In this document: positions 7,437 to 45,827 of the stretch, piece after piece
Numbering within the stretch: position 1 is the stretch's first letter
Layout: every line of letters begins with the position of its first letter
IMG/VR virus record: IMGVR_UViG_3300031469_000005
Span: 1 to 64,000 of that record
DNA: 64,000 nt
Strand: one strand, 5' to 3'
Source: a virus
The notes under the pieces: model-generated
What the model was told of the DNA's origin: nothing
The model's input: only the letters and a program-made list of their open reading frames with translations
Databases searched by the model: none
Program-made: the position numbers and the translations under genes

Positions 7437-8228
7437 CTTTGTAAAATTGTACAGGTACGGTTTTTCTCCCACGCCTGATTGGAACAAGTATCGTCTTGTT
7501 TATCCCACCGTCCCGGCTCGTAAACATCCCTCGGCAAGTTTGTTGGGGTTGATATTTGCTATTTACGAAACAAACGCTGGATTCACCGTGGGAATCATTT
7601 TCAATGGTATCGTTTGCTACGACACGCTCAAATCGTTGACAACGCTGAAACAAAACATCGTTGAATGATCTCGGCTGGAGATTGAACGAGCAATGAATGC
7701 ATGTGTAGAATTGATCAACTGATGAAAAAAGAAAAATTGCTTGAGTTCAATGACACCACAAAAAGAACTAAGTTCATTGAATTTCTCGAAGAATATACTT
7801 GTACCGATCTCATTGATGCGTTCAATTCAACCAAGAATCCTCAGGTAAACCTCGTTCCGTTTAAATCTTCGATCCTTAAGGAACAAACGACAATGTCACA
7901 GGAAGTTTACGATCTTTTCAAGAAAGAAATTGATTCTTGTTGGTTATTGACAATAAATGGTGAAAGCATGTTAATTTCTTCTGCAGGAGCATCAAAGTTA
8001 AAAACGTATGGTTTTTGATCTTGGTCACGGTGTAACGATTGAAGATCGTTCTAAAACAGGTTTCATTATTCGTGTCAATAAAAATTTTAAAGGTGAACAA
8101 ACGTATCTTGTACGATGGGTACATCCACGAGATGCTGCGGGATCACAAGAAACTATCGTTCATTTAGCATTGTTCACGTTGTACGAAGGCCATTTTAACG
8201 TTTGAATTTCCGGTTGGGGAAGAAAAAT

Positions 8229-8312
8229 ATGTCTAAGAAAGATATTGACGACCCGTCTGTGAGAATTCCACGCAAATTTGCTGGACTTCATTCTCACGAC
8301 GGGTCGTCCTAG
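8229..8312 (+). CDS. dnaE: 5' segment of dnaE carrying the first PHP motif, out of frame with the main ORF
   Basis: GGGGA SD; MSKKDIDDPSVRIPRKFAGLHSHDGSS then TAG; the AFDGLG continuation is in the +1 frame. Confidence 0.75.
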   Translation: MSKKDIDDPSVRIPRKFAGLHSHDGSS

Positions 8313-10548
8313 TGCTGCCTTTGATGGGCTTGGTTCACCCTCAGACCACATTGCATGGTGTAAGGAGAATGGTTTAGATGCTTGGGCCGCAACTAATCAT
8401 GGGCAAATGAATTCGTATGCGAACGCCGCATTGTACGTTGAAAAGCTCAACAAGGGTGGCGATAATTTCAAATTTATTCCTGGCTGCGAGCTCTACATCC
8501 ATCCCGATCTCGAACAATGGAAGAAGGATTACGAGCTCGACAAGACAACGAAAGCTGATGAAAAGGAGAAAAAGAAACAAGCGAAGAAGGAGCTTGAAAA
8601 GATCAAGACATTGATCGATGTTGAGCAAGATCCGAATGGAGAAGTCATTGAAATGACGAACTCTCTGACGATTGAGAACGAGGATGAGAGCAAAGGTTCA
8701 ACGAAGTTCTTTAAACCAGTTAATAGACGTCACCATCTCGTTGTCCTTCCAAAGAACTCAAACGGTCTTCTCGATCTTTTCAAGCTCGTATCGGTTGGAT
8801 ACTTGGATGGCTTTTACAGATTCCCTCGAATCGATTTCAAGGCTTTGAAGGAGGCTGGAAAGAAAGGAAATCTGATAGCAAGTTCAGCCTGCTTGGCGGG
8901 TCCGATGTCATGGGAGACACTGAGAGTATGTCAAGAAGTCGAATTTGACAAACTTAATGCGACGATTTTGAACGATGCAACGCTGCTTGATCGTGCTGTG
9001 AAAAACGTCGGTCTGATTCATGAACGTCTCATCGATTGTTTGGGGGAAGAGAATGCATTCTTGGAGATCCAGTTCAATCGATTGGGCGCACAGGATCTAG
9101 TGAATCGTGCTATCATCGAGTACGCAAGACGAAGCAATTTTACGAAGCAATTGATCGTAACATGTGACAGTCACTATCCTCGTCCCGAAAGTTGGCTTAT
9201 TCGCGAAGTGTACAAAAAATTGGGATGGATGAAGTATCAAGACTTCACGCCCGATATGCTTCCAAAGTCTCGCGAAGAGCTGAAATGTGAATTGTACCCG
9301 AAGAACGCGACCCAAGTTTGGGAGGAGTACCAAAATTCTAAAGTTCGTGAAGGTAACGAGTTCTACGATGATACCGAGATCTTTGATGCAATCGAGAGGA
9401 CGCATGATATCGCTCATAACGTGATCGGTGATGTGAAGCTCGATAAGACCCCCAGGTATCCCACGAAGATCGTCCCCGTGGATACGACGGCATTCAAGAT
9501 GTTGACAAAGTTGACGATTGAAGGCCTTCGACAAAAAAAGCTCGACAAGAACAAAGAATATGTAGATCGTCTCAAATTCGAACTCGGTGTTATCAAGCAA
9601 ATGGATAATGCGGCATACTTCGTCACGTTGTCGAAGATGCTGAGCCTTGCTCGAGATGTGGTACTTCTCGGTGTTGCGAGAGGTTCATGCGGTGGCAGTT
9701 TGGTTTGTTACCTTTGTTCTATCACGGATCTCGATCCCATCAAGTATAAGTGTCGTTTTGATCGCTTTATGAATCCTCACCGCGTGGGCCTTCCGGATGC
9801 TGATATCGATGTTTCAGATCGTGATAAAGTTCTAGATGTTTTTCGAAAGGAATTTGGATTCAACAACGTTTTGCCAATTTCGAACGTGAACGTTTTCAAG
9901 ATCAAATCACTTTTGAAAGATCTTTCCAAATTCAATGGTGTTCCATTCGATGAAGCGAATGAAGCGACGCGAACTGTTGAACAGGAGGTTAGAAAGGCGA
10001 CGCATGAAGCTGGAGCCGACAAGAATCTCTTTGTTTTGACGTACGATGATGCGATGAAACACAGTCCTTCTTTTTTGGCATTCATTGAAAAATATCCCGC
10101 GGTTGGTGAACACATGAAAAGCCTCTTCAAGGAACAAAAATCGCTTGGAAGGCACGCGGGTGGTGTGATCATTTTAGATGATGCGGCTTCACAGATTCCA
10201 ATCATAACGTCGAAAGGAGAACCTCAAATGCCTTTCGGGGAGGGGGTGGCACAGAAAACCTGCGAACCATTAGGTTACATTAAGTACGACATTCTAGGTT
10301 TGGAAACTATGAGATTGATCGAACGAACGATATCTCTTATCATCTCACAAAAACTTGGAAAATTGATCCAACTCGAGTTCGATGATGACAATAAAATTGA
10401 ACTTTACGAAAATGAAGAGGTAAAATTAACAACGGGTGAATTCATTCGAGCAAAAGATCTCAATGAGAATCACGATGTCATGATACCTTTCGTAAAAAAT
10501 GGAACGTCCTTACCTTCAACAGAGAACAAAGTACTGGTTTCACACTAA
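8278..10548 (+). CDS. dnaE: DNA polymerase III alpha-like, fragment 1 (PHP + catalytic palm/thumb)
   Basis: FIPGCELY, HHLVVL, TCDSHY, ARGSCGGSLV, RFMNPHRVGLPDADID, GRHAGGV, KYDILGL; ends before the fingers domain. Confidence 0.95.
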   Translation: MLDFILTTGRPSAAFDGLGSPSDHIAWCKENGLDAWAATNHGQMNSYANAALYVEKLNKGGDNFKFIPGCELYIHPDLEQWKKDYELDKTTKADEKEKKKQAKKELEKIKTLIDVEQDPNGEVIEMTNSLTIENEDESKGSTKFFKPVNRRHHLVVLPKNSNGLLDLFKLVSVGYLDGFYRFPRIDFKALKEAGKKGNLIASSACLAGPMSWETLRVCQEVEFDKLNATILNDATLLDRAVKNVGLIHERLIDCLGEENAFLEIQFNRLGAQDLVNRAIIEYARRSNFTKQLIVTCDSHYPRPESWLIREVYKKLGWMKYQDFTPDMLPKSREELKCELYPKNATQVWEEYQNSKVREGNEFYDDTEIFDAIERTHDIAHNVIGDVKLDKTPRYPTKIVPVDTTAFKMLTKLTIEGLRQKKLDKNKEYVDRLKFELGVIKQMDNAAYFVTLSKMLSLARDVVLLGVARGSCGGSLVCYLCSITDLDPIKYKCRFDRFMNPHRVGLPDADIDVSDRDKVLDVFRKEFGFNNVLPISNVNVFKIKSLLKDLSKFNGVPFDEANEATRTVEQEVRKATHEAGADKNLFVLTYDDAMKHSPSFLAFIEKYPAVGEHMKSLFKEQKSLGRHAGGVIILDDAASQIPIITSKGEPQMPFGEGVAQKTCEPLGYIKYDILGLETMRLIERTISLIISQKLGKLIQLEFDDDNKIELYENEEVKLTTGEFIRAKDLNENHDVMIPFVKNGTSLPSTENKVLVSH

Positions 10549-12322
10549 ATGTGGAAACTTTCGTCTCACTCAAGAAGGTATAGATTTCTTTAGTGAGTTG
10601 CCTAAACTCACTGGTCCACATCCCATACCATCTAGTTGTCCGATTTGTGGAGCAATTCCTCGACAAGGGAAGAATCCTCTTTTAGCTTTGTCGATACATT
10701 TTGCCCGCTTGCATTCTACGGATAAAAGTCAACTAACAATTGCTTCACATTTCAACGGGATCAAACCTGTTTGCAAAGTATGTTCGGCGGACGTGATTCA
10801 TCGTGGTGTGACACATGGATTTAAGATCTTGTGTGAACAATGCGATGATCTTCGTGTCGTTGCAAACACAGCCAAGAAACGAAAATTGAAACACGAAGTT
10901 GCGTGGAACAAAGGTCTCACTCAAGAAACTTCTGATTCCGTCAAGCGAGGAACGATCAATTGTTCAAAAACGTTGACAAAATTCGGAGCGTGGAGCAAAG
11001 ACCTTTCTCTTAAAAAGAATCCTGACAATGAAAGTCTTCAAAAACTTTCTAAGAATACATCAATCGGATTGAAAAAATTCTATGAAACGAACGAATCATG
11101 GTGCACGGGTCTCACGAAGGAAAATAGTGAGATCATTCGTAATCGTGGTCAAAAAATTCATGAAGCATTCGTACGAATCCCCTTAAAAGAACGATTCAGT
11201 GAAAATGGTCGTCGTAATCTGCAAAGTAGCATGCGCCGTGTTCAATTGCTTCAAGCGGAAAAACAAAAAATTCCAATTGAGACGATCATTGAACGAATCA
11301 ATTCAATCAATCATAATTGGACACCTTGTTTTTCGATTGACACAAAAACATTCAAACCAATCTGGTCAATTTGGGCCGGAGAACTTCGAGAATATCAATG
11401 TGTCCATTGCAAACAAGTCTACAAAAACGGCTCGAATGTTTTCATTGGCTGGGATGGTGAAGGAAAGAAATGTCCGTGTCAAAAAACCGGAAATTCAAGG
11501 GCTGAATTCGAAATCGAAGATTTTTTGAAATTACATGAATTGAACGTAAGTAGAAATAATCGATCGGTGATCTCTCCTTGGGAACTAGATTTCATCATTC
11601 CCGAAAAGAAGTTAGCCGTCGAATTCAATGGATTGTATTTTCACAGCGAGATAAAGAAAGCGAATACGATCTGGTATCATGAAAATAAACGCAATATGTG
11701 CGTCAAAAACGATTATTCGTTGTTTCACATTTATGAAGATGAATGGAATAATAAACGCGACATTGTCAAATCAATGATCCTTCAAAAACTTGGTCATGTT
11801 CAACGAAAACTTCACGCTCGTAAATGTGAAATTTTTGAATATCAAGAACCTGGTGAACTTCGATCATGGTTTGATACGAATCATATTGATGGTTACGTGA
11901 ATTCGGAATACGCTTTCGTGTTGAAGGAAAATGATGAAATTGTATTCGCTGTTCTACTTCGTAAACCATTTCATCAAAGAACTTACGGTGACAAAACGAT
12001 TGAAATTGCACGATTTGCATCAATACTGAATTCGAACGTTCGAGGCGCGTTCATGAAATTAATGAATCAAATCAAGCTTTGGTGTTTCAAGAATGGTTTT
12101 GGTAGAATTCTTTCGTATCATGATAACCGATTCGGTGGCTCGGGTGATTGTTATAAACGTGCAGGGATGACATTGCTTCGTACAAGTGGTATTTCATGGT
12201 GGTGGACAAATTATCGTGAACGTGTGAATCGTTTTGAATTCAAAAATAAACAATCTGCCGCGAATGAAGGTTACTATAAAATTGGGGGATGTTCGAACGA
12301 AGTGTACGTGCTTGATTTGTGA
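10499..12322 (+). CDS. Free-standing homing endonuclease (Vsr/PD-(D/E)xK-like; Zn fingers, WNKGLT repeats)
   Basis: SRAEFEI..ELDFIIPEKKLAVEFNGLYFHS; WNKGLTQE/WCTGLTKE; CxxC pairs; AT-rich. Confidence 0.8.
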   Translation: MERPYLQQRTKYWFHTKCGNFRLTQEGIDFFSELPKLTGPHPIPSSCPICGAIPRQGKNPLLALSIHFARLHSTDKSQLTIASHFNGIKPVCKVCSADVIHRGVTHGFKILCEQCDDLRVVANTAKKRKLKHEVAWNKGLTQETSDSVKRGTINCSKTLTKFGAWSKDLSLKKNPDNESLQKLSKNTSIGLKKFYETNESWCTGLTKENSEIIRNRGQKIHEAFVRIPLKERFSENGRRNLQSSMRRVQLLQAEKQKIPIETIIERINSINHNWTPCFSIDTKTFKPIWSIWAGELREYQCVHCKQVYKNGSNVFIGWDGEGKKCPCQKTGNSRAEFEIEDFLKLHELNVSRNNRSVISPWELDFIIPEKKLAVEFNGLYFHSEIKKANTIWYHENKRNMCVKNDYSLFHIYEDEWNNKRDIVKSMILQKLGHVQRKLHARKCEIFEYQEPGELRSWFDTNHIDGYVNSEYAFVLKENDEIVFAVLLRKPFHQRTYGDKTIEIARFASILNSNVRGAFMKLMNQIKLWCFKNGFGRILSYHDNRFGGSGDCYKRAGMTLLRTSGISWWWTNYRERVNRFEFKNKQSAANEGYYKIGGCSNEVYVLDL

Positions 12323-12392
12323 AATCAAAGAAACGATGCTAGAAAAGTATCGACGAGATGTACGTTATCGACAATTTTAATACGGTAATGGT

Positions 12393-12698
12393 ATGACACA
12401 TTATGTTTATACGTCAAAAAAACCACATGGATACATTGAGGGTGTAGGTGGTGTCGTAAATGGAAACGTGTTTTATCAAACGGTCGATGAGGTTTTAGAT
12501 AATCTTGATCGAGGTGAACGATATTACGTTTCAACACGTATCGGAGAACCGTTGGTTGAAATTCACCCAATGCAAAACGGGCCATTAACGGAAGTTCATC
12601 AAAAACAATTGGGAAGGATTCATCCCGAACGTTCAATTCGAAGTGACGCTGATATAACATCACATAACAATCTTGACAATCTTCCAGAATGTCCTTGA
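12393..12698 (+). CDS. DUF3892-like protein
   Basis: C-terminal IRSDAD...NNLDNLPEC pattern. Confidence 0.6.
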   Translation: MTHYVYTSKKPHGYIEGVGGVVNGNVFYQTVDEVLDNLDRGERYYVSTRIGEPLVEIHPMQNGPLTEVHQKQLGRIHPERSIRSDADITSHNNLDNLPECP

Positions 12699-13162
12699 TC
12701 ATGACAGACATCTCTGAATACGAGTCAACGTACGCTTCGTCATTTCCTCAACTTCCTACGATGCGAAAGCTTTGGCATTCGGATTACTGGGACGGCCCAA
12801 TTAACGGGTTGTGCATAGTGAACGATGAAAAGTGTTGGTACGAGATGATTGAAGAGAATTCTGATAGTGGTCATGACGTTCCCGATGAACCATTACCTTG
12901 GTACCGTCGATACCTCGTCTGGAAATTGACTGATGAACAACTTAATTACGTTGAAGTTCGTCATGAGAAGTTTCGCAGAATGGTAGGAACTCACAGTGAT
13001 TACGTTTATGACGAGAATGATGCCTGTTCAAGAGGAAAGTACCAGCCCAACGGTGAATTAACGAGCCAATACTACGAGGAGGCAAGGATCGAAGCTGATC
13101 TTGAAAAGCCATTGAACATCTCGCCTGCAGTTGAACGTATCATCGGATGGCATGAAACGTGA
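12689..13162 (+). CDS. Hypothetical protein
   Basis: 157 aa, LWHSDYWDGPINGLC. Confidence 0.6.
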   Translation: MSLIMTDISEYESTYASSFPQLPTMRKLWHSDYWDGPINGLCIVNDEKCWYEMIEENSDSGHDVPDEPLPWYRRYLVWKLTDEQLNYVEVRHEKFRRMVGTHSDYVYDENDACSRGKYQPNGELTSQYYEEARIEADLEKPLNISPAVERIIGWHET

Positions 13163-13174
13163 TAATTACGAATC

Positions 13175-13303
13175 ATGAAGATCACCCTAAAACAATTGAA
13201 AGATATCATAAAGGAAACAATGGAACGAAACAATTACAAGCCAAATGATCTTTACTGGTTCTCGTTTCCCGATACACCCGAAGAATTGTCGATTTGTCGA
13301 TAA
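13175..13303 (+). CDS. Small ORF with putative capsid-targeting N-terminus (not in the track)
   Basis: ATAATTA at 13162, then MKITLKQLKDIIKE... Confidence 0.55.
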   Translation: MKITLKQLKDIIKETMERNNYKPNDLYWFSFPDTPEELSICR

Positions 13304-13339
13304 GATGATTTTTTAGTGTCGTAAAATTTTCAGGAGATT

Positions 13340-13753
13340 ATGAATAGATTTTTGCTGCCTGTTTTATTGATTTCGTTTGCTTGTTCAAGCGAACATGAAC
13401 AATTATTTTGTTCACCTGACGACGGAACGTACGTCGTAAAATTCACCGAAGTTTCGGGTGACTGTAACATGAAATTGAATGGTGACATTGTCGATGAACG
13501 ATTCACGATTGATGGAAAAAATTTAATTAATCCGATGTCGTCTGAAAACTGTGTGAATGATCTTCACCTCGAAGGTTGTGTAATTGTGGGTGATGTCATT
13601 TGTGACATTATGGCTCGTAATGGAACGAACATTCACGTTGAATCGAACATTGATTTCGATACCCGGGGAGAAGGAACTCAAGAATCAAGCGTTGAATTCG
13701 ATTCAGAACCTTTTTGTTCATCGAAGTACTCTACAATCATTATTCAAGAGTGA
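13340..13753 (+). CDS. Cys-rich putative lipoprotein
   Basis: AGGAG SD; MNRFLLPVLLISFAC signal/lipobox-like. Confidence 0.6.
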   Translation: MNRFLLPVLLISFACSSEHEQLFCSPDDGTYVVKFTEVSGDCNMKLNGDIVDERFTIDGKNLINPMSSENCVNDLHLEGCVIVGDVICDIMARNGTNIHVESNIDFDTRGEGTQESSVEFDSEPFCSSKYSTIIIQE

Positions 13754-13788
13754 TGTGTTCTCAACATGATTTCATGTTATGATTGAAC

Positions 13789-14806
13789 ATGACAGATTTT
13801 CACGTGGATATCGTTCGTCTAGGAAAGATTGAAAATCATCCCAACGCTGATCTTCTCGAGATCACGAATGTGCACGGCGGTTATCCGTGTATCCTGAAAA
13901 AGGGTTCCTTTAAGGAAGGGGATCTCGCAGTTTACATCCCGATAGACACGACGCTACCCGACGTTCCAGAATTCTCGTTCCTTTCGAGCGGGGATCGTCG
14001 CAGGTTGAAAGCAAAGAAGCTTCGCGGAATTTTTTCCATGGGTCTTGTCATTCCCGTCCCAACCACGCTGGGGTCTCTCGAAGAGGGAACCGACGTCGCT
14101 GAGTTGCTCAATATCAAGAAGTTCGATCCAGTTATTGCCCACCCAAAGGTCACTGGTGGTGACTGTGAAGCCGATCCAGAAGGATGGACGTTTCAGAAGT
14201 ACACTGACATCGAACCGCTTCGGCGTAACGGAAACGTTCTCGTTGATGATGAGGAGGTGATCCTCACTGAGAAGGTTCATGGATCGAATTATCGAGTTGT
14301 TCATGATGGTACACGTCTTTGGGTTGGATCGCGTACGCAAATCAAGAAACGACCCGATGTGATCAACGAACAAACACCCGTCTGGTGGAGAATCGCTGAT
14401 CGTTACGATCTTGAGACAAAGCTCGCATCGTATCCGAAGTTGATCTTTTTTTGGCGAGGTATACGGTCCGGGAGTTCAAGACTTGAAGTACTCGTGCAAT
14501 GATCAATCACTGCGTATCTTTGATGTCTTAGACGTTTCAACGGGTAGATACCTCGATTATGATTCCGCAAAAGCGATCGCTGATGATCTGAAGCTCGAAT
14601 GGGTTCCAATCTTGTACCGAGGATCTTGGAAACGTGATGAATTGCTTTCTCTTTGTGAAGGAAAGACGACGATTGGTAAAGGCGATCATTGCCGTGAGGG
14701 GTTCGTTGTTCGCCCAACAACCGAACGTTGGGATCGTCGAGTAGGTCGTGTGGTTCTCAAGATGGTGGGTTCAGATTACCTTTTGAGAAAGTCTGACAAG
14801 TCATGA
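13789..14806 (+). CDS. RNA ligase, DRB0094-like family, frameshifted at T7 (14446-14452)
   Basis: N-terminal HPNADLLE..KLRGIFSMGL; TEKVHGSN; removing one T restores IFFGEVYGPGVQDLKY..REGFVVRP..LK. Confidence 0.85.
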
Positions 14807-15163
14807 ACGGTCGATTCAAGGATCTCTTTGAAAAAAAGCATTCAATCAATCGTCGATTGGGTTCGTTCGATACGAAAAGAAAGAACTTGATGAACACATC
14901 GATACAACTTTGTTGTTCAAGTCTTGCACGAAGAAACGTCGATACGAAGCATTCGGTGAGGCTTTCGTGAAAGCCCTTCAGTACGAACAGGTCGTGTACG
15001 ACTGTGATATTTGTAACGCATTTCATCTTGCAAGTTGTGATAAACAACGTTTCGAGCGTTTTGTTAAGAACGTTAATAAATACACGTCATTGATTCCTCT
15101 GGTGGATCGTTGATGTGTAATTCTCACTGACACGTGTTAGTATTCTAGAGAGGTTTTGAACTA

Positions 15164-15361
15164 ATGAAAGATAGTGATTTATCATCGTACGTTGATGCAT
15201 TGACGACCGTTCAAGGAGCGACCGTATTGACGGTTGATGACGGTTGGGTAATGATCTTTACGAAGGAACGTTTGATCGAACTTCTCGAAAAAGCGAATGA
15301 TTCTGATAAGGTGATGATCTTTATCAAGAGCAGCGAAAAATCAGAAGTTCTCAAGAACTAA
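15164..15361 (+). CDS. Hypothetical protein
   Basis: GAGAGG SD; promoter at 15115-15143. Confidence 0.6.
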   Translation: MKDSDLSSYVDALTTVQGATVLTVDDGWVMIFTKERLIELLEKANDSDKVMIFIKSSEKSEVLKN

Positions 15362-15380
15362 AAGAAAGAAAAACAACAAA

Positions 15381-16538
15381 ATGTCAAAAATGGCAAAGAA
15401 GAAGGTAACGAACGTGGAATCGCCTCGAGATCGCAAGAATCGTCTTGCACGTGAACGGCGGGCAGCAAAGAAGGGTACCGTTGCAAATGCAAAGCCCGTT
15501 TCTTCGCCTTCCAGCATCGTCAAAAAGAAGGTGACTCGTGTGGGATTCGTTCTCGATCGTAGCGGATCGATGCAAGCAATTCTTCCCGCTGCAATTCGTT
15601 CCTTGAATGAGAACGTCGACGTCATCAAGAAGAGTGCCACCGAAACGGGGCAAAGTGCTACCATTTCATTGATGGTGTTCGATTCTGAGACTGAGGTCAA
15701 ATTCTTGAATCGTAGCACTGACAATTATGTGAACGTTGCTGAGAATTCGATTCGTTCGCAAGGTATGACGGCGTTGCTTGATGCCACGGGAGAAATGATC
15801 AACTTGCTCAGAGCGGAACCTGTATCCGACGATGAGGACGTTGCATACCTTCTATTCGTGATCACCGACGGTCAGGAGAACCAATCTCGTAAGTACACTG
15901 CAACATCGCTGAAGACTCTCATGAAGGAAGTTCAAGGAACTGATCGTTGGACGTTGACGTTCCTTGTTCCAGTTGGTGACGCGAAGGCATTGATCAACAA
16001 TTTCGGTATCCCCGAAGGAAACGTTGCTGAATGGGAGGCATCCAGGCACGGCGTTGAAACGTACACCGCTCAGAACAATGCGGGTCTTCGTAACTACATG
16101 TCTAGTCGTGCTGTTGGTACGAACAGCGTGAAGACGTTCTACACGGATCTTTCGAAGGTGACGTTGAAGGATGTTTCTCAGCTGAAGGATGTATCCAACC
16201 TCACAACGTTGTTGACGGTTCCTCAGGATGCGAACATTCGTGAATTCATCGAATCGCAAGGTAAAACCTTCATCAAGGGCGCGGCATTCTACCAGCTCGT
16301 TCCCGGAAAGAGGGAGGCCGACAAGGTCCAGAACTACAAGGAGGTTCTTATCTTTGATAAGCGATCGAACAAGGTCTTCGGTGGCGATGACGCCAGGCAA
16401 GTTCTAGGGCTGCCATTGAACGAGATGAAGATTCGTCCAGGTAACCATGGCAACTTTGATATCTTCGTTCAAAGTACTAGCGTCAACCGTAAGGTGAAGG
16501 CGGGAACGAAGGTCATTTTCATGCCTTCCGCAGTCTAA
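15381..16538 (+). CDS. von Willebrand factor A domain protein
   Basis: MIDAS motif VLDRSGSM, GMTALLDA, ITDGQEN. Confidence 0.9.
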   Translation: MSKMAKKKVTNVESPRDRKNRLARERRAAKKGTVANAKPVSSPSSIVKKKVTRVGFVLDRSGSMQAILPAAIRSLNENVDVIKKSATETGQSATISLMVFDSETEVKFLNRSTDNYVNVAENSIRSQGMTALLDATGEMINLLRAEPVSDDEDVAYLLFVITDGQENQSRKYTATSLKTLMKEVQGTDRWTLTFLVPVGDAKALINNFGIPEGNVAEWEASRHGVETYTAQNNAGLRNYMSSRAVGTNSVKTFYTDLSKVTLKDVSQLKDVSNLTTLLTVPQDANIREFIESQGKTFIKGAAFYQLVPGKREADKVQNYKEVLIFDKRSNKVFGGDDARQVLGLPLNEMKIRPGNHGNFDIFVQSTSVNRKVKAGTKVIFMPSAV

Positions 16539-16559
16539 TCTTCTTCGGGTTCTTATCTT

Positions 16560-16620
16560 AACATTCTGGTTTTTGAAGGCGGTCCGCGTTTCAGTACGGC
16601 GATTCAAAAACCAGAATGTT
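16560..16620. repeat. Perfect 18-bp inverted repeat (terminator or processing stem)
   Basis: AACATTCTGGTTTTTGAA / TTCAAAAACCAGAATGTT, 25-nt loop. Confidence 0.8.
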
Positions 16621-16655
16621 GTGTTTTCTTCAGCGAATCATGTTAGATTGAGATC

Positions 16656-17853
16656 ATGAACAATCGTACCTTTCAAACACTGTTACAAGCGATTCGTGAC
16701 AACGTGGACTCGTACATTCGAACCGGTGACACGAAATTCCTTGATGAAAACAAGGGGGTTTGGATTCAGTTGCATCAGGCAGGACGAGGTCTTGAAGCAT
16801 CCAAGATCTTTCAAAAAGAGGCTCTTAAAGAGATGGATGAGGCAATCTCCGACATCACGAAGGATGTCGTTGCATTCAAAAGTGCTTTGATGAATCGATA
16901 ACGAATCAAACCGCATAATCAAGATCTGGAGGCGAATCATCATGTTAAAGTACAATGTTGAAACTTTTGTCATCGAGGGAAGCGTTGGAAAGTACATTGT
17001 ACGCGCTGTCAACCTCTCCAAACAACGAGCTGCGACCGTTCGTGATTCATTCGCAGCGAATGGAGACATCACTCGAATCGTTCCCGCAGGCGCTTTACCA
17101 GAGGTGGTTCACGGTTACGCGATCATGAACGACAACCTCAAGTTCCTGAAAATGTTCACCGACGCGACGGTCGATCAAAATGTGATGGAGGGGATGTGCG
17201 CCGCTCTCGAGGACGCATTAGTTGAATTCCGAGATGCTTCTTCAAGAAAGATCTGATGTCGGCTAAAAAGTGCAAGTTCCAGGTCGGTGACCTGTTGGTA
17301 CGACGTGAATTCGACCCTTCTTCTCGCGGACATCGCTCGAACGCAAGTACTCGCGACTACAATTTCAGGACGTTGAAGGTTGGTCATTCGTATCTTCTAC
17401 GCGGAAAAGAAATACTTTTGGTCGTCGCTTCGTTTAAACGATCATTCTCAGTCAAAAATGACATGTTGTTAATGACGAACGAAGGCAAGTTCATTGTTTA
17501 CGTTCATTGCGATCAGGCTCATGATCAATTCGTGCTTTCGAACAAATTGTTAAAGAGAAGTTAAGGCTGACGTGTTACTTTCTCGTGGTTAAGTTAATAT
17601 TAACTTATCGGTCGATTGATCGAGAGAAAGAACATAAATGCCGATCGTTATTTTCATCTTGAGCTTTGCGGGATTCGTTGGTATCGTTGAAACCGCGAAG
17701 GACGGATCAGCGAAGGAAGCTCGAGAGCTCGCAGAGAATCAATTTTGCAAGGTTCGTGAACCCGCACCCAAGTGCCCGAAACGATTCCATGAGCGAGCCG
17801 CTCGTCAACGCGAATTCTTGAAGAAGAACAACGCGTGGAATCTCATGCACTAA
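16656..17853 (+). CDS. Run of small hypothetical ORFs (16656..16901, 16942..17256, 17256..17564, 17638..17853)
   Basis: Promoters at 16621 and 17572; GGAGG SD before 16942. Confidence 0.5.
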
Positions 17854-17855
17854 AA

Positions 17856-18260
17856 TCACTTAGAATGAAGGATTGTCATAATGATACCCAGTACGACCGC
17901 GGCAAAACCCACTGCCGACACGATCACTGACCAGCCCTTGGATATTCCAACTCTTTGATCGTCACGTGAATTCAATCGAACGGTTAAAACTTCAATCTTC
18001 TCCGTCAATGAACGTAGCACTTGATCGAATTCGCTTCGCGGAAGCAACATTCTTGAATTATCATTCAGAGCCTCTCTGAATTCATTCACATTTTCAAATC
18101 TTTTTTCAGTTGAAATTTCAGCTTTTGTCACAGCTCTTTGTGCTGCGTCCAAGGCAGCGGATGTGCTTTTCTCGATCGTTATGAATCGAAGATCAACGTA
18201 CTCACGGAGCGTGATTGGTGTTTCCTTGTAAATCACCGTATCCGAATCATTCTTTGCCAC
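17856..18260 (-). CDS. Coiled-coil protein with C-terminal TM (holin/XhlA-like topology)
   Basis: C-terminal WSVIVSAVGFAAVVLGIIMTIL; ATATTTA motif 4 nt upstream of GTG. Confidence 0.55.
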   Translation of the reverse strand: MAKNDSDTVIYKETPITLREYVDLRFITIEKSTSAALDAAQRAVTKAEISTEKRFENVNEFREALNDNSRMLLPRSEFDQVLRSLTEKIEVLTVRLNSRDDQRVGISKGWSVIVSAVGFAAVVLGIIMTILHSK

Positions 18261-20200
18261 CTCATAAATATGATGTAAATCGCTTGATTGTAAATGACAT
18301 TGAGATGAATTTTCGACTAATTAATGGATTTTCCTCCATTGAAATTGAAAGACTCTCTCAAGACAAAGATAGATTTAGTGTTCATTTTCACAAAATGATG
18401 GTAGGATGATTTATGGAACGGAGATCGTTTGAAAACTCGTAAACAATTACGCGAAGAGTACAGAAACGCTTGTCAGGAACGACAAGAGCTTTTCAAGAAG
18501 CTTTCGAAGAACGAAGGGAAGATCGGACTCGCTTTATGGAGCGATCCTCGAATGGTCGAAATTCACGCTGAGTGCGAACGCCTCGGCGGGGAATGGCGTG
18601 AATCAGAATGAATGCGAACATGATCACTGAGGCTCAAGCTCGTGTTCTATCGAATTCTGAGTTGTTGGCTGAGTTCGAGCAGGTCGCTGAAGATCAACGT
18701 GAATTCGATTGCACGAACGCACTGTCAGTTCTTCGCACGGAGCTAAAGCGACGTTTGAAGGTGAAGGTAAAATAAATGGCAAAAACTGATTGTTGTTCGA
18801 CGGTATCAATCGATAAGACGACGCTTCTCGAAATGTGCGAGAATTCCGTGAGATTCATCGAAATGCGGCGCGCTGAGCAAACGAAAGATCTTCAGCGGCG
18901 TCGTACTGTGTATAGTTTGTTGCCTTGGTACAAGAAGTGGTTCACGAACTTTGAAACTCATCCCGGCGAAATTCGTTGGATCTCTGGCGGTGATGTCTTC
19001 ATACTGTACGAATTCGCTGACCACATTTTTGATCAGATCAACGATCTGATTCAAGCATTGAAGGTTGAGACAACGAACGATGTTCGTGTTTCTGTCAAGC
19101 TTTTGAGCGAAATCAAGAGACACGGCGGCGTCTCGAACGAGAAATGATCTCCTTATCTGACAAGCGAAAGATCATCAGCAAACGATGCGTGATGAAATCA
19201 ATCCACATGCAACCAGCGGGATTGAGGCGTCTCGCAAAGTTCCTGAAACTTCGCACGCATTCCATGAAGACGCATCAAATTGCTGAGCTAGTATGGTGGC
19301 GATTATCAAAGTTTGAAAATGATAACAACATACGGTGAACTTCTTCCGGGCGATCTTTTAACTTATCGAGAATTGCCTCCTTGGTGCATCATTGCAATTC
19401 ACCACGTTCAATACGATTGTGAGAACTATTTTAGTGTCATATTGATCGTGTTTGAAACTGGTAGAAAATCCCAACCTAACAGCAGAATCATGAGGTATTA
19501 TGGAATGTCGGATGAAAAACACACGTACAATGTGCAAAGAATTCGTTCAAATCGTTAACAACAGGTACACGATTCTAGAAAGCCAGCATTGGACGTTGAC
19601 GATCGATGGTCGACCTTCGTACTGGTCACTGGGTCTTATACAGTTGAACCGCGCCAGCAAAAAGGTTCGATTGTTCTACTTGTCGTTGGGTCCAATCGAA
19701 CTTCGTCATTGCAACATTTCAAAGGGAAACCAGTAATGAAATGGGGAATGTACTCGAAGCAAGGATCCTATCTAAACGATTCGGGTGAGCTCGATGCGTT
19801 GCTTTTGCGCAACATCGACATTAATTGGAGGTTCGTGAAGAATGTTGATGATTTCGTCTTCATTGGTTACCAGTGGGTCGCGGATCGTTACGTGATGTAC
19901 ACGATCAAGAAAATTGTCGATTGAATTCCATCGACTCACTTTGCAGGTCGAATTCGAATTCTTCTCTGAGTGATTCACAGCCAGGTGATCTGTTCGTGTA
20001 CGTTGATGAGGTTCTTGATCAACGTTTCATCGTTTTCGTGATCTCAGGGTTGTTGGACGACGTTATCGTCATGCAAAATCTTCGTAATCGTGTGGTATTT
20101 GTGAAATTTTCCATTAACGGCAGTTTGTCAGGCATGATTTTCTTGTTGAAGGCCAAAACAGAGCGTCTGAACGTTTGAGGATCACGGGATAATTACATAC

Positions 20201-21136
20201 ATGAATTCTGAGCAGCAATTGCGTACCTTTATTAAGGAGGTTCTCAATAGAACGTTCAATCAAAGTATTTTTGATGATTTGTGCTCTCAGACAACGATGA
20301 CGTACGACAACACGAAAAACGTCATTAAGGACATCATTTTGAACGATCCGTCAAGTGATAAGCGGTATTCAAAGTGGATGATGAATGAATTCGAGCGTTC
20401 AGAAATGTCATCAAGCACGATGAGTAAGTACGTTCAAATTTTTGATGAAAATCGTGATCTGTTTGATGACAACATATATCAATTTTCATCATTAAGGGAG
20501 TTGATCGCCGCTTTGAAAGCTGCGAATCTCAACACGGAAATAGATCAAAACATTTTCAAATTTCCTTCACCCGAAGGTTTTGCTCAGTCTGTCGCGGATA
20601 ACATTCCTTCAGGTTCTTCAAATTCGATCAGGCCAATGGCACCTGAATTGATAATGATTAAATCGATGGAAAAGAAGGAACGTCAATTATCGAAATTGAC
20701 AAGCAAAAAACAGAAGGCCGCAGTGAAAATGTTCACGGGTTCGACGAACGATGATGAACAAAATTTGAAAGAATTCATTGACATTGCTATGTCGTCAAAT
20801 TGTACTTGTGATGGCACGTTTTTCAGAGGTATTCGTTTACCGGAAAATCAATTTTTGAAGTTATCAAAAAGTGGAACTTACAACCTTAATGAATTTGCAT
20901 CAGTGACAGCGGTCTCACAGGTCGCGGCAAGATTCGGTTATTCGTTCAAGCAAAAATCTTCCTACGAACTAGGAATCATTTTCATCATTCAAGCAAAGAA
21001 CGTGATTCCTATCTCGAAATTGAGCGATTACGCTTGGCAAGCGGAAGGATTGCTAGTGAATTCGACATTGAACATAGACAAAATCTACTACGATAAACGA
21101 ATCGACAGATGGTTGATAACGTGTGAAGAAGTTTAA
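20201..21136 (+). CDS. ADP-ribosyltransferase (R-S-E clade, Alt/VIP2-like)
   Basis: FFRGI, FASVT..VAARF and WQAEGLL motifs; N-terminal LRTFIKE; ATAATTA upstream. Confidence 0.7.
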   Translation: MNSEQQLRTFIKEVLNRTFNQSIFDDLCSQTTMTYDNTKNVIKDIILNDPSSDKRYSKWMMNEFERSEMSSSTMSKYVQIFDENRDLFDDNIYQFSSLRELIAALKAANLNTEIDQNIFKFPSPEGFAQSVADNIPSGSSNSIRPMAPELIMIKSMEKKERQLSKLTSKKQKAAVKMFTGSTNDDEQNLKEFIDIAMSSNCTCDGTFFRGIRLPENQFLKLSKSGTYNLNEFASVTAVSQVAARFGYSFKQKSSYELGIIFIIQAKNVIPISKLSDYAWQAEGLLVNSTLNIDKIYYDKRIDRWLITCEEV

Positions 21137-21396
21137 ATTTGAATGTTCAAACCGGGTGACGTTTGTCTTGTCATACAAGATTGGAGTTGTTTTCCTTTGC
21201 CGGGAGAGCAATTGGTTGACAGGATCGTAAGGAAGAACGATTTGTGTCTTGTCATTCAACACGATTCCAAGATCGTAGCACGAAATGAATTCAGCGATAT
21301 CAACGTTCTCGTTCTCATAAAGGGTCGTTTGGGTCGAATGAATGCTCGGGCAATCGCTCGTTACACGTTGGTCAGACAAGTTAGTAAGATTTGAAC

Positions 21397-22314
21397 GTGG
21401 CTAAACTGAAATCAAGGTCGGTCGTATCATCATCACCTTCCTTTCAGGAAGTGAAGAAATGGTATCATGACAATCTGCACCCCGATGCAAACAATTACGA
21501 TGATCCGAACGTGTATAAATACGTATACCACGAATCTCGCTTCGCAGGTATCTTTCAATGCACCTCGAGCGGTGCTCAAAAGTTCTTCGTAAGGGGGAAA
21601 CCTGAATCAATTACGGACATCGCCGCGCTAACTTCAATATATCGCCCGGGGCCGCTTTCTGCGAAAGTTGATCGCATATATCTTGACGCAAAGAACGGAA
21701 AGAAGTTCGAGTGGGGTCACCCCATCTTTGAAGAGGTTCTGGGTGATACGTACAACGCTTTGGTGTTTCAGGAATCCGTGATGGATCTTGCGGAAAAGGT
21801 CGGTGGTTTTCCTAAGGATCAGTGCGACAACGTTCGAAGGGCGATCATGAAACGTGATCATTCGAAGGGAGCCGCCGCGATCAAGGAAATGAAGGACATG
21901 GAGGAAGCCTTCGTAAAGGGTGCGATGGCGAAAGGTATCAAGGAAGAAACCGCAAAGAGAAGTTACGAGACGATTTGTTTCATGAGCGGTTACGGCTTCA
22001 ACAGATGTGTATCATTTCAACAACTTATAAACATTTACGGTGTCACCGGTCAAAAAGATGGAACCAAGAAACTCAAAGATGTCAAACCGGGAGATCTCGT
22101 TCTATCTCGTGACGAAAAAATAAAGAAGAACGTTCTCGTCAAGGTTAAAAAAGTCCATTTTAATGGAACGAAACCACTTGTTCGGGTTACATTGAAATCT
22201 GGAGAAGTAATCGAGTGTACGAGGGATCACAAGTTCAGGGTGAAGGAAACGGGACAGATGCTCCCACTTCACGAGATAATCGACCGACAACTTTCGATCG
22301 TGGTATCTTCTTAG
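21397..22314 (+). CDS. dnaE: DnaE fragment 2 (fingers) fused to split N-intein (22006..22311)
   Basis: AGIFQ, SIYRPGP, LVFQESVM, GYGFNR|CVSF..ECTRDHKF; start is GTG 21397 or TTG 21391. Confidence 0.93.
   Translation: MAKLKSRSVVSSSPSFQEVKKWYHDNLHPDANNYDDPNVYKYVYHESRFAGIFQCTSSGAQKFFVRGKPESITDIAALTSIYRPGPLSAKVDRIYLDAKNGKKFEWGHPIFEEVLGDTYNALVFQESVMDLAEKVGGFPKDQCDNVRRAIMKRDHSKGAAAIKEMKDMEEAFVKGAMAKGIKEETAKRSYETICFMSGYGFNRCVSFQQLINIYGVTGQKDGTKKLKDVKPGDLVLSRDEKIKKNVLVKVKKVHFNGTKPLVRVTLKSGEVIECTRDHKFRVKETGQMLPLHEIIDRQLSIVVSS
22006..22311 (+). mobile_element. Split intein, N-part (102 aa)
   Basis: Cys1 after FNR, block B CTRDH, then stop. Confidence 0.9.
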
Positions 22315-22322
22315 AGTGAACT

Positions 22323-23396
22323 ATGACATTTCTCAAAACAAGATTTACAAAAAAGATTGGTAAAAATAATCAATCTTACAAAAAAGTGATCAGCGAATAT
22401 TCGTGCGACTTTTGTAAATCATCGTTTGAACGTGGTGGTAAAGAAAATTCAAAGTATAGATACTGTGACAAATCTTGTCAAGATCAATCACGATGTAGAG
22501 GAACTTCTACGGGTGATGCGACAAGACTGAAAATTTCAAAAGCAGCAAACGAAAGATTTAATGATCCCATAAGGGGGTCATTACTTCGTGAAAAGCATTC
22601 GATTTCTATCAAGTTGGCACATCAAAATGATCCCACGATCGGTAAAAGATCCAAACAAACTTGTATTTTACGACACGGAAAATCGGCGTTGCAATTGGCA
22701 CGTAAATCATTTGTAGAAAAATATAATGTTTCCTCGCCTGGGTGTTTAAACCACGTTAAAGAAATTGCACGTGCCAATATGAAATCACTTCATTCTTCCG
22801 GGAGGCTAAAACAAGCTTTCATTGATTCAATGGGAGTTGATAATCCGTGGAAATCTCGTGTCGTTCAAGAAAAATGCAAAAAAACTTCTTTTGAACGTTT
22901 TGGAGTTCCAAATAGTTTCATGCTTGATGAAACAAAAAAGAATTCTCATTCGAAGGAATCAATGCAAAAACGACATCAAACAATGAAGAAAAATGGAACA
23001 TACCATACTTCGAATGCAGAGGAATTCATGTATGCAATTTTGTTGAATAATTATCAACACGTTGTTCGCCAACATAAATTTCCAATCGGAGGATTAAGCG
23101 ATTTTTACATTTCTTCGATTCAAACATATGTTCAGGTTGACGGTGATTATTGGCATGGATTTAATCGAACCATTGAAGAAGTTGAATTATTTGTTACTCC
23201 CCGTGATCGACAAATTTTTGTCACTATGAACAACGATTTGAAGCAAAATGAATTCTTCGCTTCAAGACAAACTGATTTTTGTTTATTTCGAATTTCAGAG
23301 TCAATCATAGTAAAAATGAAAGATCAACTAGAACAGATTACAATTGCTGGCATCGAAAATGCGAAACTTCTGGGATTGAATAAAATTTATGTCTAA
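22323..23396 (+). CDS. Free-standing homing endonuclease (Vsr/DUF559-like) between the intein halves
   Basis: SNAEE..SDFYI..YVQVDGDYWHG; TSFERFGV-type repeats; AT-rich. Confidence 0.8.
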   Translation: MTFLKTRFTKKIGKNNQSYKKVISEYSCDFCKSSFERGGKENSKYRYCDKSCQDQSRCRGTSTGDATRLKISKAANERFNDPIRGSLLREKHSISIKLAHQNDPTIGKRSKQTCILRHGKSALQLARKSFVEKYNVSSPGCLNHVKEIARANMKSLHSSGRLKQAFIDSMGVDNPWKSRVVQEKCKKTSFERFGVPNSFMLDETKKNSHSKESMQKRHQTMKKNGTYHTSNAEEFMYAILLNNYQHVVRQHKFPIGGLSDFYISSIQTYVQVDGDYWHGFNRTIEEVELFVTPRDRQIFVTMNNDLKQNEFFASRQTDFCLFRISESIIVKMKDQLEQITIAGIENAKLLGLNKIYV

Positions 23397-23499
23397 TATT
23401 CTCTCAGTTGAAGAAATTGGAAATCATGAAACTTGTGATCTTGAAGTTGATCATTGTGATCACCAGTTTTATCTCGCTAATGGTATTCTAACATCGAAC
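23389..23499 (+). mobile_element. Split intein, C-part
   Basis: Blocks F/G, terminal Asn followed by Ser+1 at 23500. Confidence 0.9.
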
Positions 23500-24429
23500 A
23501 GCCATGCCACGGCTTACGCTATTGATTCATATATGTGTTCCTGGCTCATGTACCATCACGAGACTCAATGGCTCACGGCTTACCTCGAATCAATGTCGGG
23601 TAACGACGATTCTCGTGCTAAGGCATTCGCTGAGGTTCGTGCAATGGGTTACGACATCGTTCCTATCGATATCATGCATGCAACCTCAGGTTGGACGGTT
23701 CTCCCCGGAAAAAAATTAATGCCAGCGCTGACGACCGCGAAAGGCGTTGGTGGTACTGCCGCAGAGGAATTGCAATCGCTTCGTCCGTTCGATTCATTCG
23801 AAGAATTGTTATGGGATGAGAATGGCACATGGCGTCTCGGCAAGTTCAATAAGCGCGCTCTCGAGGCGTTGATAAACGTCGAAGCCTTCAATAGCTTGGA
23901 TTGTGTAGGACCGGGAAAGTTGTTTGACAACTATAAACAAATGGGAATGATCGTGATCGATAGGATCAACGACATCAAGAAGACGACGAGGAAGGATCCT
24001 CATCTTGGAAGGAAACGTTTCTACGAACTTCTCCAAGAAACCCGAGGCGTGGAACCTTACACGAAGCTCGAACGCATCTTGCGAAGCATCAAACATTTCG
24101 GTACTGCGGACGTGAACATGATCATCTCCGAGGAGATGAAAAAAGGCTTGGCAAACATGGGTATCAAGTCGATCGACGAGTACGAAGAAAAGGGAACGTA
24201 CTGGTTTTGCATCGCTGAAACAACGCCCAAGCAATCGAAGACGGGGAAGAAGTACCTGATGTTGAAGGTACAGGGGCCGTCTGGAAAGACGTACAAGATG
24301 TTCATGTGGGGCTGGAACGGTACGAAGAAGTTCGATAAGTACGCTCTCATTGGAGCTGAGATCAGCAATGATCCAGAATTTGGTTTTTCGACATCAATGT
24401 TCAAAATGCGTGAACTTGACGACGGTTGA
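23389..24429 (+). CDS. dnaE: Split C-intein (37 aa) fused to DnaE fragment 3 (HhH/OB region)
   Basis: MSNILSVEEIG..CDLEV..HQFYLANGILTSN|SHATAYA; KGVG; FNKRALEALI. Confidence 0.93.
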   Translation: MSNILSVEEIGNHETCDLEVDHCDHQFYLANGILTSNSHATAYAIDSYMCSWLMYHHETQWLTAYLESMSGNDDSRAKAFAEVRAMGYDIVPIDIMHATSGWTVLPGKKLMPALTTAKGVGGTAAEELQSLRPFDSFEELLWDENGTWRLGKFNKRALEALINVEAFNSLDCVGPGKLFDNYKQMGMIVIDRINDIKKTTRKDPHLGRKRFYELLQETRGVEPYTKLERILRSIKHFGTADVNMIISEEMKKGLANMGIKSIDEYEEKGTYWFCIAETTPKQSKTGKKYLMLKVQGPSGKTYKMFMWGWNGTKKFDKYALIGAEISNDPEFGFSTSMFKMRELDDG

Positions 24430-24485
24430 AATTTAAAATGTAATGTCGTGCATTACGTGTTACGATGAACGTGTAAGGATAAAAT

Positions 24486-24866
24486 ATGACAAATTCAGAT
24501 CGAGTTTTTAAGAACGTTGTTAGGTCGATGATCGAACTTTACGAAAGTGGAAGAATCGGTTGGTGTCGAAAGTCAATTGCGAAGGATTCAAATGGGCGTG
24601 ATTGTGATATCAACGATCCAAACCTTGCGAGATGTTGCGTTCTTGGTTCGATGGATATCGTTATCAAGAATCGCCACCTCAGCAGAAAGGAAGAAGTCAA
24701 TCTTCAAAGTTTCGTCAGCTACCGTCTAACAACGGAGGCACGGAAATTGCCTTTGATGGGTGATCAAAATCGTATGAACCTATCAATTCCAGGTTTTAAT
24801 GACGGAGTTTGCAAACGAAAGTCTGATCTGGTTCGTTTTCTCAAGAAGGTTGTCAAGGAATCTTGA
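24486..24866 (+). CDS. Hypothetical phage protein
   Basis: GWCR..CCVLGS..FND pattern; promoter at 24438-24466. Confidence 0.55.
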   Translation: MTNSDRVFKNVVRSMIELYESGRIGWCRKSIAKDSNGRDCDINDPNLARCCVLGSMDIVIKNRHLSRKEEVNLQSFVSYRLTTEARKLPLMGDQNRMNLSIPGFNDGVCKRKSDLVRFLKKVVKES

Positions 24867-25430
24867 ATGTTGATGTCGTTCAAGAAAACGAAGAAGCCTT
24901 TTAAGCAACGGATCATAATCCTTGAAGGCGTCGACATGAGCGGCAAAACTGAAATTTCTCATGAACTTTCGAAACGTCTTGACATTCCCCGATTCAAGGC
25001 TTCAAACGAACACGATGTGTTCTTGAATCGTTCTGAGAACCACTTCATCAAGCACCTCCAGTATGCTGATCCCCGAGTCGTCGATCTTCTTTCACAGACA
25101 AAACAATCACTGATCATGGATCGTGCCTATCCTTCAGAATGGGTCTACAGTAAGGTCTTAGGACGTGAAACGGACGATCGAATGCTAGAAAAAATCGATC
25201 AATCATTTGCAAATCTCGGTGCGTGGATCATAATCTGTCACAGATCTTCATACGCATCGATCGTCGATGATCTCGATTCTTCAATCGATGCATCGGTTCT
25301 TGATCGTCTTGACAATGAGTACAGGCGTTTCTTGAAGTTCACGAAATGCAAGACGATGCTTTTGAATGTTGATGACGAGAACCTACAACGTGAAATCAAT
25401 GACATCATGTTCGTGATTGGAGATGAATAA
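24867..25430 (+). CDS. dNMP/thymidylate kinase-like
   Basis: IILEGVDMSGKT P-loop; IMDRAYPSEWVY. Confidence 0.85.
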   Translation: MLMSFKKTKKPFKQRIIILEGVDMSGKTEISHELSKRLDIPRFKASNEHDVFLNRSENHFIKHLQYADPRVVDLLSQTKQSLIMDRAYPSEWVYSKVLGRETDDRMLEKIDQSFANLGAWIIICHRSSYASIVDDLDSSIDASVLDRLDNEYRRFLKFTKCKTMLLNVDDENLQREINDIMFVIGDE

Positions 25431-25432
25431 GA

Positions 25433-45766: not shown

Positions 45767-45827
45767 ATGCTGATCTTATCACGATTCATGAAAGAAAACA
45801 CAAAAATGACATGTCTTATAATTGATC

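Follow-up and report, generated by a model that had tools for sequence, protein, structure and literature searches.

A soil jumbo phage DnaE polymerase encoded in three genes, with a predicted split intein at one break and a putative catalytically dead intein remnant at the other

The replicative DNA polymerase DnaE of an uncultured soil jumbo phage is encoded in three separate genes, all within the stretch analysed here (the window), which is the first 64 kb of the 112,886-bp IMG/VR virus record IMGVR_UViG_3300031469_000005. CheckV puts the completeness of the record at 33%, and it is therefore a fragment of the genome of a jumbo phage. Two breaks divide the polymerase. The first, site A, separates fragment 1 from fragment 2 by 10.8 kb and about 24 open reading frames (ORFs); the second, site C, lies between fragments 2 and 3 and is occupied by a predicted split intein. 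In all likelihood the working enzyme consists of two chains that associate non-covalently, and one of these is in turn a product of trans-splicing. The locus is laid out as follows (aa, amino acids).

8278–10344, plus strand: dnaE fragment 1 extein, residues 1–689, with PHP, palm and thumb and the aspartates D507, D509 and D671 (Pfam, alignment)
10345–10548, plus strand: C-terminal tail of fragment 1, 67 aa (10345–10545) and stop codon; strongly acidic, apparently the dead second half of an N-intein
10499–12322, plus strand: free-standing homing-endonuclease gene, 607 aa, adjoining the tail (phrog_3339, E 8.9e-56)
12393–21394, mostly plus strand, one ORF on the minus strand (17856–18260): cargo region, about 23 small ORFs, most of them unknown (ORF list, Pfam and PHROGs)
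21397–21432, plus strand: N-terminal head of fragment 2, about 12 aa (MAKLKSRSVVSS); basic, apparently a vestige of the first strand of a C-intein
21433–22005, plus strand: dnaE fragment 2 extein, fingers up to GYGFNR (PF17657, E 1e-32; alignment)
22006–22314, plus strand: putative N-intein starting CVSF, with block B TRDH, and stop codon (weak PF14890; motifs read from the translation)
22323–23396, plus strand: second free-standing homing-endonuclease gene, 357 aa, with a Vsr-like core (weak Pfam Vsr; phrog_3339, E 2.5e-11)
23389–23499, plus strand: putative C-intein, 37 aa, ending GILTSN, with Ser at +1 (sequence; comparison with locus L004)
23500–24429, plus strand: dnaE fragment 3 extein, SHATAYA..., with HhH and OB (PF14579; tblastn to contiguous homologues)

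The original prediction, made from the letters alone, had proposed a DnaE in three genes, and database searches bear this out. Pfam domains occur in order over 8278–10548, 21391/21397–22314 and 23389–24429: the first ORF (756 aa) carries PHP (PF02811) and the Pol III alpha NTPase domain (PF07733), with E 1.4e-46; the second the finger domain PF17657 (E 1e-32) and a weak N-intein; and the third HHH_6 (PF14579). PHP, palm, thumb, fingers, HhH and OB thus follow one another collinearly with contiguous homologues of 1,200 aa. Comparison was made with the 120 nearest homologues, at 50–72% identity, with an alignment of 30 homologues, and with 160 related loci retrieved with an alignment query, a single-protein query having returned none. 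The catalytic acidic triad, D507 and D509 (PDADID) and D671 (KYDILGL), falls on columns invariant in the 30-sequence alignment, and we take these residues to be equivalent to D401, D403 and D555 of the E. coli enzyme. Under translation table 11 none of the three polymerase or two endonuclease ORFs is interrupted. Among the cultured phages in INPHARED none is nearer than about 31% identity.

The position of the first break was fixed by alignment with contiguous homologues. The DnaE sequence of fragment 1 ends at ...RTISLII (residue 689, nucleotide 10344), and extein sequence picks up again in fragment 2 at (S)PSFQEVKKWY, at about nucleotide 21433, both much as first proposed; contiguous relatives continue at this point with ...KEGN.KP[ST]F.DVK.WY.... 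By the same alignment site A is a variable linker at the boundary between palm and fingers, the limits of which are assumed here to be those of the E. coli structure. The likeliest start of fragment 2 is the GTG at 21397 (giving the 305-aa form P0121, as gene callers have it), which lies 2 nucleotides past the stop of the upstream ORF. Relatives do share the break, which is present at this site in 46 of the 120 nearest homologues. All 46 of their site A tails follow the pattern hydrophobic-E-hydrophobic-E-x-DG...L.....V.L.dG....A..L...DD-hydrophobic, and at least 56 fragment-2-type proteins begin M[AKS]K[IVL]xS[IV]xxV..P[TS] and then run directly into F.DVK.WY. The absence of a group I or II intron, noted at the outset, was confirmed with cmscan, which returned no Rfam intron or ribozyme in 7500–25500 at E ≤ 1, and only one sub-threshold snoRNA-like hit.

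The break had been called intein-less. This stands in so far as there are no splicing residues, but the ends are not bare: what surrounds the break appears to be the conserved remnant of a split intein that has lost its catalytic residues. N-inteins elsewhere in the same polymerase family end ...CIELEFDNGKKLICTTDHPILTQRGWIQAGDLTSEDEVVSF, and an example of a site A tail reads WYEFELEDGTKKCLFGDEEIKTSNRGVVKAKEIRPADDIESF. When the 46 tails were compared with nine N-inteins of the family in hhalign, the probability was 94% (E 1.4e-7), and tail columns 5–51 aligned to N-intein positions 51–104, so that block B (TxxH) falls on non-catalytic residues. A ten-sequence profile of the tail, run against all Protein Data Bank (PDB) sequences, found residues 60–106 of the NrdJ-1 split intein (E 0.011) and Sonic hedgehog; the top two rows of that search (Tako8) were discounted as summed weak repeats in a designed repeat protein. 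An AlphaFold2 (AF2) model of the window's tail has a mean per-residue confidence (pLDDT) of 74, rising to 81–89 at residues 11–40. When this model was searched against the PDB, Foldseek placed nothing but inteins and Hedgehog Hint domains among its roughly 47 top hits (prob 0.96–1.0, TMq ≤ 0.67), while the 27 top hits of VIA-align are all inteins, Hint or bacterial intein-like (BIL) domains, with Z up to 7.6. It aligns to the middle of these chains: 56–122 of 150 in NrdJ-1, 41–98 of 127 in gp41-1, and 49–99 of 101 in the N-terminal half (IntN) of the Npu DnaE intein. The neighbours of the tail in a protein language model are mostly Hint-clan clusters, which serves as a lead only. On this profile and fold evidence the tail can be regarded as a piece of an intein, derived from the HINT fold.

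The head is shorter and its resemblance is confined to a single strand. True C-inteins of the same family begin MKLVSSRxVG..VYDIEV..HNF..VVHN↓C (arrows mark splice junctions), of which the heads retain just MK[LIV]xS..xV. Against a position-specific scoring matrix built from 30 C-intein first strands, the window's head scores 9.9, compared with a 99th percentile of 6.96 for 1,066 control N-termini, and 24 of 56 heads lie above that percentile. The 25-aa head region gave no match to PDB sequences in phmmer, a query too short for this to count. At neither end are the residues needed for splicing to be found: the 46 tails have no conserved Cys1 or Ser1 and no TxxH, and at least 56 heads have no block F or G, no terminal Asn and no HN dipeptide, the extein motif P[TS]F.DVK.WY following directly. 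By itself the tail covers no more than the central third to half of solved inteins, and tail and head together, at 57–80 aa, amount to about half a HINT domain. Site A is, by its residues, not a split intein, and is best described as intein-derived.

Several observations bear on what the tail and head might do. The tails of relatives are under purifying selection: dN/dS is 0.22 for the pair L083/L084, and two further tail pairs give pN of 0.27–0.32 at saturated pS of 0.90–0.97. Past their first eight residues 44 of the 46 tails are acidic, the window's tail having a net charge of −8 over residues 9–50, and heads carry from 0 to +3, the window's head +3. An acidic tail with a neutral-to-basic head has the polarity of the published capture of a cationic IntC by an anionic IntN (PMC11766414). 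In two natural proteins, P0008 and P0027, a tail-like and a head-like sequence occur together as a single in-frame insert at site A. The P0027 insert (50 aa; residues 706–752) is predicted by AF2 as an all-beta module with pLDDT 88–93, at the point where the last helix of the palm gives way to the first of the fingers, with the head-like segment forming strand 746–752; by extension, the strands of tail and head may pair in the split forms.

These features suggest the following scheme. The dnaE gene would have been fractured twice by homing-endonuclease cassettes. The cassette at site A would retain only the middle of the intein fold, the second half of an N-intein as tail and the first strand of a C-intein as head. 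With every splicing residue missing, site A has no means of forming a peptide bond; instead, the acidic tail and basic head would dock as the halves of a split intein do in their electrostatic 'capture' step, completing a small beta module that would hold the PHP–palm–thumb piece non-covalently to the fingers piece. Fragments 2 and 3 would presumably be joined covalently by protein trans-splicing. With the gene in two independent cistrons, the space between them would become neutral ground, in which some 9 kb of lineage-specific small genes could accumulate here.

Assembly through a dead half-intein clasp is the best reading of the data, and we consider it probable. Of the two possibilities raised originally, the non-covalent pairing of PHP–palm–thumb with trans-spliced fingers/OB is accordingly the better supported; the other, joining by an unrecognised mechanism at the RNA or protein level, finds no intron model match, no joined form among contigs and no splicing residues in its favour. 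Such a covalent joint, by an unusual minimal split intein or another protein- or RNA-level ligation, might be argued for from the intein ancestry proposed for tail and head, and from the existence of atypical and cysteine-less split inteins (PMC11766414). But tail and head together come to about 57–80 aa as against at least about 125 aa for solved mini-inteins; there is no conserved nucleophile at the start of the tail, no TxxH, no block F/G and no terminal Asn; and no joined form of fragments 1 and 2 was present in the contigs of four runs (X1–X4), so that we hold a covalent joint to be very improbable indeed. These runs are among 14 soil metatranscriptome runs that contain the sequence, all RNA libraries kept as contigs. 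They bear equally on the notion that misassembly, by fusing strains or contigs into a chimera, produced the 10.8-kb separation. One homopolymer error does exist in the window (A7 at 14831–14837, A8 in all four runs) and strain variants interrupt contigs at 19103 and 19473, but a 174,695-bp contig of X1 spans the entire three-gene stretch, and contigs of X2, X3 and X4 cross both junctions of the first break (9397–14035, 9583–11044, 18578–22942 and 20978–22124) with 0 mismatches. The misassembly that had been named as a possible refutation did not apply, and an artefact is hardly credible. Decay was weighed too: the pieces could be pseudogene fragments, with the working polymerase supplied from the unsequenced two thirds of the genome or by the host, as the low CheckV completeness allows and as a frameshifted RNA ligase gene nearby might hint. 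Against this, fragment 1 retains every column invariant over 30 homologues, the catalytic Asp residues included; 46 diverged homologues keep the same split with intact ORFs; the closest relative keeps both halves at 72–73% identity; and no other DnaE, PolA or PolB lies within the 113 kb of the record, where each DnaE domain family is present once. An intact polymerase elsewhere, which would have counted against the original prediction, was thus not found in the approximately 33% of the genome to hand, and decay appears very unlikely.

The likeliest of the alternatives accepts the two-chain enzyme but dispenses with the clasp: the native palm/fingers interface alone would hold the fragments together, and tail and head would be inert scars of a decayed split intein, or serve in folding, stability or endonuclease regulation. 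It can point to site A being a variable surface linker at a domain boundary, and to the NrdA heterodimer of phage Aeh1, which forms without its tails (PMC3045599). On the other side, the tail/head pattern has been kept over many diverged lineages under purifying selection, whereas one would expect an inert scar to shorten or to drift without constraint; the charges are complementary; and AF2 models the cis form confidently as a single beta module. On balance a clasp-free enzyme seems to us rather unlikely. A number of points nevertheless weigh against assembly through the clasp. That tail and head bind each other, and that the polymerase needs them to, is an inference; in Aeh1 NrdA the tails are essential and yet dispensable for pairing of the fragments (PMC3045599), so the native interface might suffice. 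For a model of 67 aa, Foldseek E values of ≥ 0.05 and VIA Z scores below 8 are each modest, and it is the uniformity of the hit lists that gives the fold searches their weight. The last 18 aa of the window's tail are unconserved and predicted with low confidence. Contigs from RNA libraries reveal neither transcription, nor transcript ends, nor the absence of rare joined molecules, and a record only about 33% complete leaves room for an intact polymerase elsewhere.

The endonuclease genes fit the proposed origin of the breaks. Recoding, which had been suspected where fragment 1 overlaps ORF 10499–12322 by 50 nucleotides, is not supported, the overlap being the start of the free-standing homing-endonuclease gene. 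A frameshift fusion of the two was rejected as well: the ORF encodes a nearly full-length endonuclease, and those of relatives likewise abut or overlap the stop of fragment 1. The 607-aa protein shares 30% identity with the endonuclease, of the same family, that occupies the equivalent place in related locus L079, and shows no significant pairwise similarity to the 357-aa endonuclease at site C, both nevertheless matching phrog_3339. In other related loci the nuclease in the site A gap is of different kinds: Vsr-like in L005, L083 and L084, GIY-YIG-like (as judged by eye) in L006 and L085, and missing from L013.

The distribution of the split state is scattered. On a FastTree phylogeny of 116 polymerase cores it requires 27 changes, of which at least 23 are forced by well-supported branches. 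Two contiguous forms make up the sister group of the window's polymerase and its 72% relative P0002 (support 98), and the halves of this closest relative, P0002 and P0133, are encoded on the same 120,541-bp contig. Over 730 aa, P0067, which is split, shares 94.8% identity with P0096, which is contiguous at site A, and the two differ mainly near the insertion point. Such scatter, together with so close a split/contiguous pair, marks the site A cassette as mobile, and the pattern fits repeated homing and/or precise loss, not one ancient split. In loci L084 and L085 dnaE is fractured at up to three or four places per gene, with true split inteins also at GIFQ↓C and ...TY(N/T)↓CL(S/T)GD, and each of these has an endonuclease gene to itself. 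For elements of this kind the polymerase family is a hotspot.

Site C is of a more familiar kind. As had been predicted, fragments 2 and 3 carry the two halves of a split intein, GYGFNR↓CVSF...TRDH... and ...GILTSN↓SHATAYA, of which the residues point to trans-splicing: Cys1, block B (ECTRDHKF), a terminal Asn and Ser at +1 are all present, though the penultimate residue is Ser instead of His and Pfam Intein_splicing falls below its cut-off (17.9 bits). The same arrangement at the same site in L004 has an N-intein 45% and a C-intein 67% identical to those of the window. Site C lies inside the nucleotide-binding finger motif (FNK/SH), and, given that position, a covalent join is plausibly indispensable there.

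Fractured genes with split inteins and a free-standing, Vsr-like homing-endonuclease gene between the halves were described by Dassa, London, Stoddard and Pietrokovski in 2009 (PMC2677866), who listed three fractured DnaE loci and whose model foresees later genomic uncoupling of the halves. Site C has exactly this layout, its halves on the same strand with the endonuclease gene (22323–23396) between them. Site A also has an N-part, an endonuclease gene right behind the N-half (10499–12322) and a C-part, but its intein parts comprise only the middle of the fold, without any splicing residue, and its halves are 10.8 kb apart, with some 23 unrelated ORFs over 9 kb besides the endonuclease. The same survey includes an SbcD-like fractured gene without an intein, having a 25-aa tail and a 9-aa head. 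Another precedent is NrdA of Aeromonas phage Aeh1, split by mobE into NrdA-a and NrdA-b, in which tails derived from the element are essential for activity; the authors speculated that these tails may go back to a degenerate intein (Crona et al. 2010, PMC3045599). In Aeh1 as at site A, an essential enzyme is split by a mobile endonuclease, bears oppositely charged terminal extensions, and assembles, or here would assemble, without RNA or protein splicing. At site A, however, the intein origin is demonstrable by profile and fold, the polarity is the reverse of that in Aeh1 (acidic tail, basic head), and within one polymerase family the cassette is both common and mobile; its function here is a prediction. 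The cyanobacterial split DnaE inteins of Npu and Ssp, for which 'capture and collapse' of an anionic IntN and a cationic IntC is described by Shah et al. 2013 (as related in PMC11766414), are likewise encoded in distant genes and, going by that account, dock through the same charges, and the tail aligns to residues 49–99 of Npu IntN; they differ in being complete and splicing, and in their insertion site, whereas site A keeps only the docking part. The arrangement is therefore less singular than the original prediction had it, with 46 of the 120 nearest homologues split at site A and tails on intein-less fractured genes already published (PMC3045599, PMC2677866). Full-text literature searching found no paper on intein-remnant tails in phage DnaE, and what is specific to this window is the very large, cargo-filled gap and the presence, in a single enzyme, of one split intein that is dead and another that is apparently live.

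The gap itself does hold more than 20 genes, as had been stated (about 24 ORFs), with one, 17856–18260, on the opposite strand. That some have their own promoters is borne out in part: a phage promoter-like motif, GTGTT-N14/15-TGnTAnnnT, matches 15 times in the window against 0.24 expected, mostly just upstream of starts, and has two copies in the gap (13755–13783 and 16621–16649) besides others such as those at 45773, 49525 and 58792. No strict copy precedes dnaE fragment 1 or fragment 2. Scans for sigma-70 promoters (36 vs 30.5) and terminators (20 vs 16.5) were at chance level and are uninformative on co-transcription.

In relatives the gap at site A varies widely, from about 0.3 kb in L013 through 0.9 kb in L085, 1.2–1.3 kb in L005 and L006 and 2.6–2.7 kb in L084 and L025 to 3.7 kb in L111; in L079 it exceeds 3.2 kb, where the contig ends. 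L025 is among the relatives with cargo in this gap. Among the non-nuclease genes, as judged by eye, L111 has ones for an HD-domain protein and ThyX, and L084 has a carbonic-anhydrase-like ORF. In the 160 related loci no homologue of the window's own gap ORFs (12.3–21.4 kb) was present within 10 kb of dnaE, and the gene just after fragment 3 (24867–25430, dNMP/thymidylate-kinase-like) is syntenic in 73 loci. From these comparisons the window's gap would be the extreme of a continuum, in which the inter-cistronic space of a fractured gene gains lineage-specific genes.

Several gap genes have features of their own. An RNA ligase gene at 13783–14806 (PHA02142 OB fold and RNA_ligase; phrog_968/548) is split into ORFs of 239 and 107 aa by a +1 shift at the T7 run 14446–14452; with six T it would read ...KLIFFGEVYGPGVQDLKYS... 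continuously. The contigs of all four runs show T7, and the shift is therefore not an error of the window; it represents a genuine frameshift, a pseudogene, or a place where transcription or translation slips. By contrast, the A7 run at 14831–14837, A8 in the four runs, is a 1-nucleotide homopolymer deletion in the window, and with A8 the ORFs 14803–14970 and 14910–15113 merge into a single ORF of about 103 aa. Mid-gap lies a 385-aa VWA-domain protein with a basic N-terminal region (15381–16538; phrog_26613, E 1.6e-67). The ORFs at 17256, 19313, 19873 and 21143 start with (Q/L/K)(V/P)GD-hydrophobic (QVGDLLV, LLPGDLLT, SQPGDLFV and FKPGDVCLV), and the last of them is translationally coupled to fragment 2. 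Contigs of X2–X4 depart from the window at 19103, 19473, 7722 and 8560 with loose ends that are shared, the 30 nucleotides after 19103 being identical in three runs; there appear to be co-occurring strain variants with different DNA in part of the site A gap and just upstream of dnaE.

If a dead half-intein does hold this polymerase together, the locus would illustrate how fracture of a gene opens up new intergenic space, one essential gene here extending over 16 kb and enclosing about 25 others. Annotation pipelines will miscall such polymerases as truncated or missing. A presumably spliced break in an active-site motif and an unspliced break in a linker of the same enzyme constitute a natural experiment on the positions at which each kind of break can be tolerated. 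On the same condition, the dead half-intein would be the missing link for the suggestion of Crona et al. that such tails descend from inteins. The docking part of a split intein could then persist and spread alone as a non-covalent clasp, which is relevant to intein evolution, and would be a source of small natural heterodimerisation tags without a splice product. It is possible, and we put it forward tentatively, that the site A cassette represents a distinct class of self-contained mobile element, in which an endonuclease gene travels with its 'antidote', a non-catalytic half-HINT heterodimerisation module. If so, an essential gene can be invaded and split without protein splicing, the break becoming a permissive landing pad for phage genes; the docking and the chemistry of inteins would be evolutionarily separable; and many sequence variants of small (about 45 + 12 aa), orthogonal, non-splicing protein clasps would occur naturally.

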